The notes: generated from the sequence alone by a model not told the origin. 27,637 nucleotides of DNA from a virus (IMGVR_UViG_2854395284_000002:1-27637); one strand, 5' to 3'. Shown: positions 11,650 to 16,680, counted from the stretch's first letter. A program made the numbers and translations.

Positions 11650-11919
11650 TTATTTATCATCTGCATAGAAATCGCAAAAATCATTCTCATCTGTAAGAGT
11701 TTTTAATTCCTTACACAAATCAAATGTCATAACGTTCTGACAACTAGAATTTGGACATCTAACTGTGCATTGACTAGGTTTTGGGTTAATACATCTTGGA
11801 ATACAAGCTTCAGACCTTGCAAAAATAAATACTGTACCACATTTGTTACAAACACAACCATACTTTCTTTCTGGATCTGGTTTCTTTATATGGTCATTAT
11901 GTACTGCTAATATTCTCAT
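11650..11919 (-). CDS. Zn-finger hypothetical protein
   Basis: CNKC...CPNSSC. Start overlaps the stop of the PAPS-reductase-like gene. Confidence 0.65.
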   Translation of the reverse strand: MRILAVHNDHIKKPDPERKYGCVCNKCGTVFIFARSEACIPRCINPKPSQCTVRCPNSSCQNVMTFDLCKELKTLTDENDFCDFYADDK

Positions 11920-12911
11920 TGTTTGATTCTCTCCTTCTCATCCATCATTTTTCTAAACTCCATGTACTTTCTTGTATATTCATAAGAATCTTTGAAAATA
12001 TTCGTTACTGCTTTATATAGTTTAGGTTCATACTTCTCAATTACATCTAATTCATTCTCAAAATCTCTTCCATAAGGACAACCACAACATCCTGTACGTT
12101 TTAATCCATATTCCGTATAACATTTGCTATGTATAATCCCATACGCTTTCTCATAATCTTCTTTATCTGAATTTTTATACCAAAACAACGGTCTGTAATT
12201 GTCATACTTATCACTCTCATCGAAGCAGTTACCATATCTAACTCTTGCACCACCCTCAGTTTTTCGTACACCAAATATATTCAGATCATAATCTTCCTCT
12301 TTTAGCAGGTTATGAATTAAATCTTTTTTCGCATATTTGCAGCATCTATTTGAAATTTTAAATGTTGGATTGTTTTGAATCATAAATTCTTTTAGATATT
12401 TATTTCTACGAATATTGAAGTTATCTGTTAGATTTGTATTGCACCACCATTGTAATGCAGATTGACATTTCGGATACTTCTTATATAATGTATCAAAGTC
12501 TTCATCTTCCCACTGAAAGTTATGTCTTTGTAACCGTTGTAAAAATTCACTTGTAATCTTAGACATAAACGGTTCTCCATAATTCTTGCAACTTGCAGGA
12601 ATTGGAATTTTAGGACGTTTCTTTACAAACGTAATATCATATCTTTCTTCAAGATATTTTAAATGATTTTTCGTGGCTTGATATTCAAGACCTGTATCAA
12701 ACCATACATAATCTACCTTGTTATCTTTATCACATCTCCAAACAATATCTAACATTACATCACTGTCTGAACCGCCAGAGATTGCACAAACAATTTTCTT
12801 ATACTTTGTATTGTTAATAATTGCCCATGCACGAATCAAGTTGTCACAAATCATTTGATTTACAGGACAACCATTTAATAATTCCTCAATTGTATTAGCT
12901 TTCTGTACCAA
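11916..12911 (-). CDS. PAPS-reductase/DndC-family PP-loop Fe-S protein (copy 2)
   Basis: SGGSDS PP-loop, RCCKYAKK, GVRKTE..R, RPLFWY and RTGCCGCPY. TTG start. Confidence 0.85.
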   Translation of the reverse strand: MVQKANTIEELLNGCPVNQMICDNLIRAWAIINNTKYKKIVCAISGGSDSDVMLDIVWRCDKDNKVDYVWFDTGLEYQATKNHLKYLEERYDITFVKKRPKIPIPASCKNYGEPFMSKITSEFLQRLQRHNFQWEDEDFDTLYKKYPKCQSALQWWCNTNLTDNFNIRRNKYLKEFMIQNNPTFKISNRCCKYAKKDLIHNLLKEEDYDLNIFGVRKTEGGARVRYGNCFDESDKYDNYRPLFWYKNSDKEDYEKAYGIIHSKCYTEYGLKRTGCCGCPYGRDFENELDVIEKYEPKLYKAVTNIFKDSYEYTRKYMEFRKMMDEKERIKQ

Positions 12912-13085
12912 TATGTACTTTCCTCACTGAAAATTATTTCATTTCAATGAGGCAAAGCCATACTTCGTGAGTGTCTTTTTACGTCACTATCACATTGCTT
13001 TTTCGATTTATATTAACCAATGATCCGTCTTCTATAAATCATCGTGACAACCTTTGCTGCACAAAGGTATTAAATACATATGGTA
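12906..13085 (-). ncRNA. Structured intergenic RNA, module copy 2
   Basis: Terminal 13-bp long-range stem (13085-13073 with 12919-12906, one bulge, one GU); 7-bp hairpin 13050-13068; 8-bp stem 13005-13040; 11-bp RBS hairpin 12922-12952. Confidence 0.65.
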
Positions 13086-13090
13086 AAAAG

Positions 13091-13447
13091 CTAACCAATC
13101 GGTAGTACAGCTTCGCAAAGTCTTTCTATGTTGTTTATTTCACAATTTACCATCTTGTGATTTGGATTATCATTATTATAATCTCTCATAAACATATCTA
13201 GCCAGAAATCAAAATACTCATCATCTGCACTTGAATCCATTACTGCATATCTATCAACTGTTTTATAATTACCTTTTTCTGTAAGATAAGATAAATTGAC
13301 TTTATATACCGGCAATGTAATTTTTGTTTTCAAGAAATTCTTTGGATGTATATTTCTTAGTTTTTCTTTTAAATCTGAATCATAAATTTCAAATACGTCA
13401 ATTCCTGTCCTTAGAGAACAGTTTTTAAAAAACTCACTCGGATGCAC
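13091..13447 (-). CDS. Small unknown protein, module copy 2 (paralog of 14954-15277)
   Basis: GTG start after GGTGG; HPK...YLTEKGNYK motif. Confidence 0.75.
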   Translation of the reverse strand: MHPSEFFKNCSLRTGIDVFEIYDSDLKEKLRNIHPKNFLKTKITLPVYKVNLSYLTEKGNYKTVDRYAVMDSSADDEYFDFWLDMFMRDYNNDNPNHKMVNCEINNIERLCEAVLPIG

Positions 13448-13477
13448 TACTTTTCACCACCTTTCTACCAATAAAAC

Positions 13478-14758
13478 CTAGAACAACGCACAACCTTGAG
13501 CCTTAAACGACTCCACCTGCTTGTCCCACTCTTCTTTTGTCCAATCAAATTCTTTCATCAAACATTTCTTACAATAGAATTTATTAACTTGTCTTCCATG
13601 TATTTTTAAGTTCATTGAAAGAACTTCCTTATGTTTTATTCTCTTATTGCACTCACAACATTTCTTATTAAAATATTGCAGCGCAATCTGTTTATCAATT
13701 CCTGTATACTTTACAAATTCATCAATAACTTCTTGTGTTGGCTCACTTCTAAACACACCACCATTCCATGCTTGAGTAAGATATTCTTCAATTGTGCAGT
13801 TCATAATCAGCCATTTCTGATTACTTATAAAATCTTCTCTTAGAATATCTCTCCATCTTTTATATGCTTTTGAATACCAATATTTATCAAGAATCCATGT
13901 TGACTTCGCATAATATGGACAAGCACAATGGCATCCAACTCTTGAATATCCTTTTTTATATTTTGGATTAACTTCAATATTTTTCCAAAATGTATAAAGC
14001 CAAACATCTAATTCCGTCCACTTTCTAATAGGAAGTATTCCTTGCCAGCATGTGTCTCCCCATTCGGAAGTATTAACCCATTCGTCTTGATAATTGCTTC
14101 TTGTATTGGATTCTTCATTTCTCATTCCCATAAAAATTAAATACGGATGCTTATTATCAAGCTGAGAGACCATAACTCCAACTTTAAAAATCCTACAACA
14201 GAATCTTGAAAATCTTGATGGAATCATAGAATCAGATTTCACATATTGATAAAACCCTTTGTCTGGATTCATGATTTTACAGTTCGGAAACCGTTTAACC
14301 ATCTTATATGTGTCAGCACAATCAAGTGATGTGTTGTTGAATATTGCTTTTGTGTTTGGATATAGTTGTCGAACTAAATGACATGTAACCATAGAATCTT
14401 TACCCATAGAAACAGGTATTATTGGAGTATATACATCATAATCTTTGATCTTTTCACGTATTAGGCATAAAGCTTCATGTTCAATTTCTCTCAAATGATT
14501 TTCTTTGAGATTGACCATTGTTCTCCAATCTATTAGGTCTACTTCAGATGAATCTTCATAAGATTTTAATTTTAGAATTTCTACTTTTTCTAGGTTATCT
14601 GATACTTTAACTCTGCAAAATTTATGTTCTACAAGTTGACTATCAAAGCCTTTTATAATCTGTTTATCAAGCCAAAAGAATCCTTCTTTTAAATAAGGTA
14701 ATTCTTCGCCAGAAGTGTCTCTTAAAAATTTGATATATTCATTGTATATCGGATTCAA
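13478..14758 (-). CDS. PAPS-reductase/DndC-family PP-loop Fe-S protein with C-terminal Zn finger (copy 1)
   Basis: SMGKDS, RFCCRIFK, GMRNEESNTR, PIRKWTELDVW, GYSRVGCHCACPY and C-terminal CCEC...YCKKC. TTG start. Confidence 0.85.
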   Translation of the reverse strand: MNPIYNEYIKFLRDTSGEELPYLKEGFFWLDKQIIKGFDSQLVEHKFCRVKVSDNLEKVEILKLKSYEDSSEVDLIDWRTMVNLKENHLREIEHEALCLIREKIKDYDVYTPIIPVSMGKDSMVTCHLVRQLYPNTKAIFNNTSLDCADTYKMVKRFPNCKIMNPDKGFYQYVKSDSMIPSRFSRFCCRIFKVGVMVSQLDNKHPYLIFMGMRNEESNTRSNYQDEWVNTSEWGDTCWQGILPIRKWTELDVWLYTFWKNIEVNPKYKKGYSRVGCHCACPYYAKSTWILDKYWYSKAYKRWRDILREDFISNQKWLIMNCTIEEYLTQAWNGGVFRSEPTQEVIDEFVKYTGIDKQIALQYFNKKCCECNKRIKHKEVLSMNLKIHGRQVNKFYCKKCLMKEFDWTKEEWDKQVESFKAQGCALF

Positions 14759-14944
14759 TTGTAATCTTCCTTTAACTTTTGGATTTTACCAATTAGTTAA
14801 AGGAGTCTATCTTATGCTTAGAAACCAATTATTTTAGGTCATAGTGTAAGATTTTACGTTTTAACCTTATGTCGCTATGTTGCTTTGGTAATACAAGCCA
14901 TCTCGCTATACAACCCTGATTACAGGGATTTGATTACAATTGAA
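14754..14944 (-). ncRNA. Structured intergenic RNA, module copy 1
   Basis: Perfect 13-bp terminal inverted repeat (14754-14766 / 14932-14944); hairpin CCCTG-TAAT-CAGGG 14914-14927; 10-bp RBS hairpin 14768-14804. Confidence 0.65.
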
Positions 14945-14953
14945 AAATATTTA

Positions 14954-15277
14954 TTATTCAAGTTCTAAATAAAGTTTTCCGAAATAAACCGCATCAAGAA
15001 TTTCTACGTTTGATATCGTTCTTTCCGGATGTTTTTCATTAAGTTCTTTAATATGATTCATGAATTCCTGATCGACAGAATCCCATGCATTCTTATCTAA
15101 GAACATATACTTTACTGCTTCTTTTGGATTTCCACGAGCAGTTGTATACTTATATTTAATCTTCCAAGTTGGAATAGGAATTACTTCACTTGCAATCTGT
15201 TTTGGATGGCAGTTTTTAACTTCTTCCATTTCACTGTCATCGTACTTACAAACTGCTTGTAATTCAGATATTTTCAT
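14954..15277 (-). CDS. Small unknown protein, module copy 1 (paralog of 13091-13447)
   Basis: AGGAGG precedes ATG 15277; HPK...YTTARGNPK motif. Confidence 0.75.
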   Translation of the reverse strand: MKISELQAVCKYDDSEMEEVKNCHPKQIASEVIPIPTWKIKYKYTTARGNPKEAVKYMFLDKNAWDSVDQEFMNHIKELNEKHPERTISNVEILDAVYFGKLYLELE

Positions 15278-15350
15278 TTTGACTCTCACCTCCTGATTAT
15301 TTATTCTCTACTTCGACAAAAATCAAATGAAAAATTAATTTCATAATTAG

Positions 15351-15540
15351 AAGCACGTTCATTTCCGTACTTCATGAGAGCATCCTTGTCCCTGACTACG
15401 TGAGGGTTGCGGTTTGTTCCAGAGTATTATATTCTGAATTCACAGGTTCAACTCATACACCCATCGGTTGACTGAAATATTGCTAACAGTCTTCACCTTT
15501 ACCTTTTCACCATCTCAGACTTTCAGTTCCTTTCACCGCA
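15351..15540 (-). ncRNA. Candidate multi-stem ncRNA
   Basis: ORF-free and relatively GC-rich. TGCGGT/ACCGCA encloses ACTGAAA/TTTCAGT, GTCT/AGAC, CAAC/GTTG and TTCAGA/TCTGGA, followed by CCCT/AGGG and GAAGTACG/CGTGCTTC hairpins. Confidence 0.45.
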
Positions 15541-15557
15541 TTTATCTTTTTATTATT

Positions 15558-15743
15558 TTATTTCCAATTAAAATACGGAGTATATCTTCCACAGAAAAGA
15601 TTGCAGCATCTTTCCTTATATACAAACTTATTATTCTCTAACACACATTCTCTAACCATAGATTTTCCGCACATCGGACATTTCTTTGTGATTTTACTAT
15701 TTTTATTGCCAATCTTTACTTCATATCCAAGTAATTCATGCAT
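15558..15743 (-). CDS. Small Zn-ribbon protein
   Basis: CPMC...CCNLFC; GGGGG RBS-like tract upstream. Confidence 0.55.
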   Translation of the reverse strand: MHELLGYEVKIGNKNSKITKKCPMCGKSMVRECVLENNKFVYKERCCNLFCGRYTPYFNWK

Positions 15744-15765: not shown

Positions 15766-16500
15766 TTATTCTCTTATCTCAAATAATTTTTCCACTGCTT
15801 TTACACGCTTGTTATTATCAATTGTTCTTTTTACTTCTTGTTCCCAAATACAATCCCATCCTGAAGGTGCTTTATGTTCACTAACCAGAACAATATTCTT
15901 TTCGCTCATTTTTTCCGCCCAATTCCAAAATCTATCATAATCAAAGTTTTTGCTTGTACCATATTGTTTTACTCCGCAATATGGAATATCACAGTAGAAT
16001 AAACAGTCAATTCTATCAGAATATAACTCTTCATAATCTCCGCATTGGAACAGAATATCTTTTAATCGTGGAATCTGTTCTAATAGGTTTCTTCTTGCTT
16101 CATCATAATAATTTCTTTCAGTTCCAGCTTTTGTACATACAACGCCTGAATATCCACCATCAAAGAATCGTCCGTTATAGCTCGCAAGAAATCCAACTGC
16201 TCCAATATACCAGCCAGGATATGTATTTAAGTCTTTGTTGAAGCATTCTCTTACTTTTGAGTAATGTTCTTTTGTAATAAAATCTGGAAGACTTTGAATC
16301 CGATTTAGATTCTTGAATATTTCTATAAGATATTTATGATTATCGGATGCAATTTTTGTATCACATTGAATCTTGTCAATGATATTGCATCCACCACAGA
16401 ACGGCTCTATATATGTTTTTATATCATAATCTTTTATTCTCTGCTGAATAATCGGAATTATATATTTCGATATTCGAGACTTTGATCCCATGTATTTCAT
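15766..16500 (-). CDS. D12-class (Dam-like) N6-adenine DNA methyltransferase
   Basis: KYMGSK, YIEPFCGG (SAM-binding motif I) and FYCDIPY (DPPY variant). Confidence 0.9.
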   Translation of the reverse strand: MKYMGSKSRISKYIIPIIQQRIKDYDIKTYIEPFCGGCNIIDKIQCDTKIASDNHKYLIEIFKNLNRIQSLPDFITKEHYSKVRECFNKDLNTYPGWYIGAVGFLASYNGRFFDGGYSGVVCTKAGTERNYYDEARRNLLEQIPRLKDILFQCGDYEELYSDRIDCLFYCDIPYCGVKQYGTSKNFDYDRFWNWAEKMSEKNIVLVSEHKAPSGWDCIWEQEVKRTIDNNKRVKAVEKLFEIRE

Positions 16501-16680
16501 TAACAACTATTAAGAGCAAAGAATTCTTTAATGTACGTACAAATCTCATACTCCTTTCGTTAAGTTTTCTTAATAAAAATTCAATTTCATAACTAGATGT
16601 TTGCAACCATCTAATATATTATTCTCTTGTCCAATTGGAAATTTCGAGCAGAAACGCTCTAAGAAGTTATTTTAAAATTA

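Follow-up and report, generated by a model that had tools for sequence, protein, structure and literature searches.

In a genome fragment of a large gut phage, two adjacent genes for PP-loop enzymes are each preceded by a large folded RNA, which in turn follows a gene for a small protein. The fragment, called the window in what follows, is a stretch of 27,637 nucleotides (IMGVR_UViG_2854395284_000002:1-27637) at the start of an IMG/VR phage record of 143 kb, which CheckV estimates to be ~61% complete. What marks the RNAs as leaders is a conserved, covarying structure directly upstream of an open reading frame (ORF), predicted to mask its Shine-Dalgarno (SD) sequence and start codon. We propose, with a probability of roughly 0.55, that each module is one transcript in which the folded leader keeps translation of the enzyme switched off, and that small protein and RNA together constitute a cognate, portable control cassette.

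All genes of the window, which has a GC content of ~32%, are on the minus strand, and so are all features described below. In the order of that strand, small protein A (107 amino acids, acidic, isoelectric point (pI) 5.4; 14954-15277) is followed by a 195-nucleotide (nt) spacer, enzyme A (426 amino acids; 13478-14758), 30 nt, small protein B (118 amino acids, acidic, pI 5.3, with a GTG start; 13091-13447), a 179-nt spacer and enzyme B (331 amino acids; 11916-12911). The ATG of small protein A is preceded by an AGGAGG SD sequence; initiation at the GTG of 15289 instead is unlikely. An earlier, sequence-only reading of this DNA had described a duplicated layout of small protein, RNA and enzyme, and the ORFs are confirmed at the positions it gave. 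The small proteins are indeed paralogs, as it had held, with 29% identity across 83 amino acids (E=2e-12); between the two enzymes there is only a distant likeness (E=0.002). Measured from stop to start, the true spacers are 14759-14953 (A) and 12912-13090 (B). The limits proposed earlier, 14944-14754 and 13085-12906, differ from these, but the first pair coincides exactly with the outer edges of the closing stem described below, and the second lies within a base of them.

Both spacers are predicted to fold much more stably than expected by chance, with -54.6 kcal/mol for spacer A (z=-6.4) and -57.6 kcal/mol for spacer B (z=-6.9), and in neither case was any of 200 shuffled sequences as good. 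They have a common architecture. A long closing stem, P0, has a 5' arm that begins 10-13 nt past the first base of the small-ORF stop codon, and a 3' arm that reaches from the SD sequence to just beyond the enzyme start codon, the UUG itself being paired. Behind the 5' arm follow, in the same order in both RNAs, a first hairpin, the sequence word GG-UUG, a multi-helix core and a last hairpin, in which the SD sequence is paired with an anti-SD of the CUCCUUU or CCUCA type. Alongside GG-UUG and the SD hairpin, ACGUAAAA is a further sequence word common to both spacers. Pairing of the start codon with the first 35 nt past the upstream stop is predicted in 14 of 14 representatives, covering at least four RNA sequence types (P 0.5-1.0; one start base of locus L091 is unpaired), against a mean of 0.08-0.10 in shuffled controls, and the SD window is predicted to be 66-89% paired. 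Furthermore, loci with an AUG start in place of UUG, or with another base behind the start codon, show matching changes in the 5' arm of P0. The suggestion that the RNA gates the enzyme fits this anatomy, in which both the SD sequence and the start codon of the enzyme are predicted to be buried.

The type-B leader RNA (12894-13090) consists of the 179-nt spacer and the first codons of enzyme B. The 5' arm of its closing stem, ACCAUAUGUAUUU (13072-13084), begins 10 nt past the first base of the small-B stop codon. The 3' arm, AAAGUACAUAUUGGU (12907-12921), contains the enzyme B UUG (12909-12911); it is defined by fold and covariation, and co-varies in L081/L083, which have an AUG start, and in the L112 group, in which the next base differs. 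The core (12967-13048), likewise delimited by covariation, encloses a hairpin, P2 (13005-13040), and the near-invariant loop GUAAAAAGACAC. Two of its helices, S1 (13044-13048 with 12983-12987) and S2 (12990-12993 with 12967-12970), are 100% paired; GUCAC/GUGAC in S1 becomes GCCGC/GCGGC in L081/L083, and an A-U pair in S2 becomes G-C in two sequence groups (L016/L102 and L087). A nested alternative to this arrangement shows mismatches, and the core is best described as a pseudoknot; pseudoknot and nested fold may be alternative states. The SD-sequestering hairpin, CCUCAUUGAAA...UUUCAGUGAGG, occupies 12922-12952, with a mean pairing probability of 0.88 over the SD window. Among 36 distinct sequences, 97.8% of the cells of the alignment are standard pairs and 16 pairs are compensated, and none of 500 shuffles was as good; if the partners are slid by 1-3 columns, pairing falls to about 40%. 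The alignment was fitted to the covariance model, and an independent MAFFT alignment gives the same picture. An extra hairpin of 27-28 nt is present at one and the same junction, between the pseudoknot and AGUAUGGCUUU, in L016:4355-4581 (also in L102) and in L087:1257-1480, the two groups that also carry the compensatory change in S2. A hammerhead-like core (CGAUGA...GAAA) was considered for type B and rejected, essential core positions being missing or variable.

The type-A leader RNA (14740-14953) is made up of the 195-nt spacer and the paired first codons of enzyme A. Here, the 5' arm of P0, UUCAAUUGUAAUC (14932-14944), begins 13 nt past the first base of the small-A stop codon, and the 3' arm, GAUUACAAUUGAA (14754-14766), contains the enzyme A UUG (14756-14758), for which the predicted pairing probability is 1.0 against a shuffle mean of 0.10. 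The hairpin CUCCUUUAAC...GUUAAAGGAAG (14766-14805) sequesters the SD sequence, with a mean pairing probability of 0.89 over the SD window. In the consensus fold of 12 sequences, 11 pairs are compensated, including pairs of the closing stem and of hairpin P3; in the closing stem, U-A becomes C-G in five sequences and G-C becomes A-U in two. That the two spacers share a fold and sequence words, as had been claimed, stands for the architecture and for some of the words. The covariance model of type B (R1) finds the type-B RNA of the window with 223 bits, but gives spacer A only 13.7 bits (E=0.09), and therefore common descent of the two types is no more than plausible.

The structure belongs to the mRNA strand, since there are 116 G.U cells against 5 A.C cells, and in 45 of 48 sequences the sense strand folds more stably. 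The spacers are non-coding: their alignments contain indels of 1 and 2 nt, and extra hairpins are inserted at one junction. They are also better conserved than the flanking proteins; in L071/L072, the RNA core is nearly unchanged at a protein identity of 56-60% with the window. It is hardly credible that the spacers are DNA-level elements, such as MITE-like inserts (miniature inverted-repeat transposable elements) with terminal inverted repeats, or recombination or origin sites. Perfect 13-bp inverted repeats do flank spacer A, and the cassettes are mobile between contexts, but the strand asymmetry and the compensatory changes in internal helices speak for RNA, the repeat includes the start codon and co-varies with it, and the 143-kb record contains a single R1 match. 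Two other explanations of the spacers were rejected. For translational bypass, the candidate landing sites checked by eye would leave the enzyme reading frame, and an intron is excluded by the size of 170-240 nt. A terminator scan found no terminator-like site on the coding strand of the spacers, and tandem direct repeats of the type III toxin-antitoxin kind are not visible, each module having a single unit of ~190 nt.

Neither RNA resembles a described family. In Rfam 15 there is no match at gathering score in the whole window, and only chance-level matches at E up to 10 for both spacers and for the distant homologs L081 and L075. The small protein has no family in profile searches of Pfam, PHROGs, NCBIfam, PADLOC and PDB sequences, and literature searches found no description of the RNA or of the small protein. 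The system had been called undescribed, and for RNA and small protein the searches of Rfam, Pfam, PHROGs, NCBIfam and PADLOC bear this out.

The small-protein family is nevertheless sizeable. A profile search of 1.84 billion representative proteins yields 208 clusters at 50% identity. The best 150 of these 208 have lengths of 47-284 amino acids, some with two or three tandem copies of the domain, and no fusion to an enzyme occurs among them. Tandem fusions of two or three domains (188-284 amino acids) are seen in L075, P0067, P0076-P0079, P0100, P0149 and P0185; the double-domain form of L075 (3001-3618) still precedes a structured spacer, of 203 nt, and a PAPS_reduct gene with an AUG start. 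The AlphaFold2 model of small protein A has a pLDDT of 92. With the small-protein model, Foldseek found nothing in the PDB at E<=0.001, the best VIA-align match (Z 6.5) is an archaeal ribosomal protein and lies within noise, a search of BFVD returned only a family member, and the matches in the ESM Atlas were all hypothetical phage or Bacillota clusters. Three IMG/VR scans with single distant family members gave no matches. The notion of a split gene was dropped, as the small protein shows no relation to the N-terminal 110 amino acids of enzyme A (hhalign probability 0.1%). In L004 (6005-6007), which is on the same contig as L070, small protein B has an in-frame TGA at the conserved Gly of a Y-x-T-x-x-G-N-x-K motif; downstream of it, neither the RNA nor enzyme B is disrupted. 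The TGA stems either from a nonsense mutation or from an error of sequencing, recoding being improbable given that the remaining genes on the contig read through normally.

One possibility, decidedly improbable in our estimate, gives the leading part to the small protein, which would inhibit or chaperone the enzyme or else inhibit a host defence protein; the RNA would then only set order and stoichiometry, the small protein being made first. The family is acidic, its weak fold matches include the small phage inhibitor proteins p56 and Gp2 (Z about 4), and the open, strong SD sequence of the small ORF contrasts with the masked SD sequence and UUG of the enzyme. These fold matches are, however, within noise and below the one to the ribosomal protein, and many phages keep the enzyme without the small protein. 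The proposal moreover overlaps with the translational gate favoured here.

The linkage of the three parts is most complete when seen from the small protein. All 76 module instances found in IMG/VR near the two small proteins of the window consist of the small gene, a spacer of 167-206 nt and the enzyme. All distant family members with enough contig (L075, the P0122 contig, L081-L089 and L091-L097) are likewise followed by a gap of 174-245 nt and a PAPS_reduct or PP-loop gene, and the same order recurs in five contigs of metagenome-assembled genomes (MAGs) that were found via the RNA core pattern. Thus, every small-protein homolog with downstream DNA is followed by a spacer of 167-245 nt and a PP-loop gene, the point on which the earlier proposal had been staked. 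The enzyme behind the type-A small gene and the type-A RNA is a different, short PP-loop protein in L095-L097 and L182, and the type-A cassette hence sits before two unrelated PP-loop enzyme clades. The gene caller chose an internal ATG for this short enzyme (L095:3033-3788, and also L096, L097 and L182); the conserved UUG of the closing stem adds 15 residues, including SFGKDS. The near-absent Pfam match of the enzyme as called is explained by the missed true start and its motif.

Seen from the enzyme, the picture is different. Among the 80 closest relatives of enzyme B in IMG/VR, 55 have a type-B RNA and 25 have neither RNA nor small gene. An ORF of the small family ends at the RNA in 55 of the 55 RNA-bearing loci and in none of the 25 RNA-less ones. 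The enzymes without a cassette include those of L099-L101, which are 94-95% identical to enzyme B of the window. No small-family gene exists anywhere in five phage records of this kind, of which one is 100% complete, and the same search recovers both copies in the record of the window. In the Clostridium phages CS266P1-4, the enzyme lies directly behind another gene. On a maximum-likelihood tree of the enzymes, well-supported branches force the cassette to have been gained or lost at least five times. From the strict co-occurrence and the joint gains and losses it follows that RNA and small gene travel as one unit. This unit is dispensable for the enzyme, and it can precede at least three PP-loop enzyme clades. 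The view that the three linked parts form a functional unit therefore holds without exception from the side of the small protein and fails for 25 of the 80 close relatives of enzyme B.

The cassette of module A has also been lost, or was never gained, in some phages. In L062-L069 (~2470-2705), a relative of enzyme A (73% identity) with an ATG start is directly followed by a complete type-B module, and upstream of it no small-A gene and no type-A RNA is detectable. Relatives of enzyme B that are devoid of the cassette retain non-coding upstream regions of 74-250 nt with conserved hairpins of their own (L099/L100/L104; L109-L124; L160/L166/L169/L172/L173/L176; ~1400-1500). Just 5' of the start there are, for example, two hairpins that exclude each other, AGAUUGYRCAAUCU and AAUCUCU...AGAGAUU, and the L109 group again seems to use a UUG start. 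These hairpins being distinct, different leaders may regulate the same enzyme.

The distribution bears directly on whether the leader is a metabolite-sensing riboswitch, for instance for a sulfur or nucleotide metabolite, with the small ORF as a mere neighbour. This is unlikely, for all that the pseudoknotted core, the near-invariant unpaired purine-rich stretches and an expression platform sequestering the SD sequence would suit a riboswitch well. A mere neighbour would not be expected to co-occur with the RNA as strictly as the small gene does (55 of 55 against 0 of 25) and to be gained or lost jointly with it at least five times. In addition, aptamers usually keep one core, and the cores of types A and B differ to the extent that R1 misses type A; the lack of an Rfam match points in the same direction.

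The same data weigh on a role of the RNA in trans. In such a scheme, which we regard as quite unlikely, the RNA, with or without the small protein, would act together with the enzyme as a ribonucleoprotein (RNP), serving as scaffold, specificity factor, guide or substrate. One version, no less doubtful, has the RNA and the acidic small protein as a dedicated RNP accessory for specificity, activation, sulfur relay on a scaffold, or provision of an RNA substrate or mimic. Phages would then plug the cassette onto different enzyme clades, and the pairing of the start codon would be secondary, coupling assembly to synthesis; we think this just as questionable. The three-part linkage without exception from the small-protein side and the specificity of the cassette for three PP-loop enzyme clades are in favour of an RNP, and so is the general knowledge that some other PP-loop iron-sulfur (Fe-S) enzymes, such as TtcA and TtuA, act on a structured RNA, namely tRNA. 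An obligate partner is, however, contradicted by the 94-95% identical enzymes without both parts, by the 100%-complete related phage without a small-family gene and by the five or more gains or losses on the enzyme tree. The RNA itself speaks against a guide, as it has no hypervariable segment and its 3' arm is the start site of the enzyme. As to a retron-like RNP, Pfam and PHROG scans of the flanking ORFs (10.9-16.5 kb) and of the larger window ORFs revealed no reverse transcriptase (RT) domain, the many short ORFs being outside these scans. The earlier idea of a pair that guides its enzyme is thus not supported, and neither is an obligate partnership.

In the mechanism that we infer, translational control would operate through the fold. 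The small ORF would be translated freely from its exposed, strong SD sequence. The enzyme would be held off, its weak UUG being paired with bases just past the small-ORF stop and its SD sequence being buried in a hairpin. The 5' arm of P0 would lie within, or a few bases beyond, the footprint of a ribosome terminating at the small-ORF stop. Two opening events are the most likely. Termination itself would unwind P0 in its outer part, and the start codon, brought close by the fold, would become accessible; this would amount to a structure-bridged translational coupling. Alternatively or additionally, a factor may bind the conserved pseudoknotted core. The cassette would in this manner set the timing and the amount of the enzyme. 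That a further, specific partner takes part is suggested by the pseudoknot and by the unpaired stretches, which hardly vary, and the strict co-occurrence of RNA and small gene makes the small protein the obvious candidate for it. Given its acidity and the uninformative fold matches, it is no more than a candidate.

Several points weigh against a translational gate. All states of the RNA are predictions. Acidic small proteins, with a pI of 5.3-5.4 and a family median of 5.6, are unusual for an RNA-binding regulator. Melting of the closing stem alone would not open the SD hairpin, and the short distance from stop to stem could simply result from phage genomes being compact. Behind the cassette there are only PP-loop enzymes, which suggests a tie to their chemistry that a generic gate does not explain, and the single-stranded stretches, being nearly invariant, imply that a specific ligand or partner exists.

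As to the enzymes, both are PP-loop proteins resembling 3'-phosphoadenosine 5'-phosphosulfate (PAPS) reductase, with a UUG start. Enzyme A matches PF01507 with 9e-27 (94.6 bits) and enzyme B with 3.5e-12 (47.1 bits), the gathering cut-off being 22.5 bits, and both match phrog_424 (1.3e-26 for enzyme B). PAPS-reductase-like genes of this kind (phrog_424) rank with the most frequently annotated "auxiliary" genes of phages. The PP-loop motif is SMGKDS in enzyme A and SGGSDS in enzyme B, where it is invariant across relatives, as are the cysteines C190, C191, C275 and C278 (CC...CxxC). Enzyme A has a similar set, CC and C-x-C-x-C, and a C-terminal CxxC...CxxC tail. The UUG start is retained in all close relatives, and distant ones have an ATG at the same aligned position. 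Of the description as PP-loop Fe-S proteins starting with TTG, the PP-loop and the start codon are thus upheld by PF01507, the motifs and the TTG of both genes; the Fe-S cluster is a putative one, read from the cysteine motifs only.

The enzymes are probably DNA-modifying. In PADLOC, enzyme A matches BrxP, in its PAPS-reductase domain, with 7.8e-33, covering model positions 79-360 of 779, and enzyme B matches BrxP (9e-9) and SspD (5e-4); enzyme A also has CysD/CysH-like matches in NCBIfam and PDB. DNA phosphorothioation requires BrxP (PMC12914056). This role, the similarity to BrxP, DndC and SspD, and the recurrence of an upstream DNA methyltransferase gene are the reasons why DNA is the presumed substrate. 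In the window, a gene upstream of module A (15766-16506; PF02086, 1.3e-13) encodes a DNA adenine methyltransferase of the D12 class (Dam-like); L093/L094 (C5 type) and L095-L097 (N6/N4 type) likewise have a DNA methyltransferase gene before the small gene. A partner ATPase of the DndD/SspC/BrxC type is absent among the window ORFs of at least 300 amino acids, the rest of the 143-kb record not having been searched for these. Such ORFs encode PolIII alpha, NrdD, LigA and the two enzymes, and no others.

The modules are part of a replication and nucleotide-metabolism region, the window also encoding, besides PolIII alpha, NrdD and the NAD-dependent ligase LigA, a dUTPase, a ThyX-like protein, a 5'-nucleotidase and the Dam-like methyltransferase. 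Related sequences come from human-gut viromes and from MAG contigs of Clostridia or Bacilli. ARAGORN found no tRNA or tmRNA. Downstream of enzyme B, an ORF for a Cys-rich, zinc-ribbon-like protein of 89 amino acids (11650-11919) overlaps the enzyme stop by 4 nt (ATGA). It recurs 3' of enzyme B in several loci, and in L172 a homolog sits upstream of a cassette-less enzyme instead. Upstream of small protein A, ~270 nt (15290-15557) contain no coding-strand ORF of at least 40 amino acids; they separate small A from a Cys-rich ORF of 61 amino acids (15558-15743). This stretch folds modestly (z=-1.8), a spurious upstream "ORF" of L104 seems, by eye, to match it, and it may be a promoter or leader region. 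In some contigs a BrnT/BrnA toxin-antitoxin pair lies directly downstream of the module (L083/L084:4217-4739).

What is new here, as far as the databases and papers searched show, are the RNA types and the small-protein family; the principle, a leader that masks a ribosome-binding site and is coupled to the upstream cistron, is already known. The RNAs represent a family of large, pseudoknotted leaders with at least two to four diverged types, absent from Rfam, and the small proteins a family that is never found without such an RNA. Through this system one may learn how phages time a BrxP/DndC-like, potentially DNA-modifying enzyme whose gene adjoins those of DNA methyltransferases, and structural work gains a candidate for a new riboswitch or RNP. 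The architecture, a fold that joins an upstream stop codon and a downstream UUG across about 180 nt, is testable.

Among known systems, both phage enzymes share the PP-loop fold family and the CC...CxxC cysteines with DndC/SspD/BrxP, CysH and CysD (PF01507); they are short, stand-alone proteins and lack the DUF4007 part of BrxP. Retrons, too, have a non-coding RNA with inverted repeats adjoining an effector-like gene. Here, however, the 3' repeat is the translation start of the enzyme, and the setting is a phage replication module instead of a defence island. With no RT among the ORFs scanned, the retron-like analogy drawn by the sequence-only reading comes down to the terminal inverted repeats and is not supported. 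Closer in build are translational riboswitches and the leaders of ribosomal protein genes, such as the L20 and S15 pseudoknots, in which a conserved, structured 5' leader likewise has a pseudoknot and unpaired nucleotides that do not vary, and sequesters the SD sequence. The phage leaders differ from these in lacking an Rfam match, in being always tied to one upstream small gene and in occurring in several diverged types.

In the single-stranded RNA phages MS2 and Qbeta, long-range pairing masks the replicase start until the coat gene is translated, and the coat protein then binds the start-site hairpin. The likeness is evident: a downstream start is masked by pairing near the upstream cistron, translation of that cistron is a plausible opener, and its product may feed back. 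In contrast, the phage mRNA considered here is that of a double-stranded DNA phage, the pairing partner just past the upstream stop closes a multi-helix, pseudoknotted domain of 170-240 nt, the small protein is acidic and its RNA binding hypothetical, and there is no sequence relation. Finally, known termination-reinitiation coupling requires overlapping genes or very short intergenic distances (PMC10666635, PMC6728339). In the present modules an upstream stop and a weak UUG start seem to be functionally juxtaposed in a comparable way, but the linear distance is 167-245 nt and proximity would be achieved through the fold only. If this is true, translational coupling extends beyond the short-distance rule.

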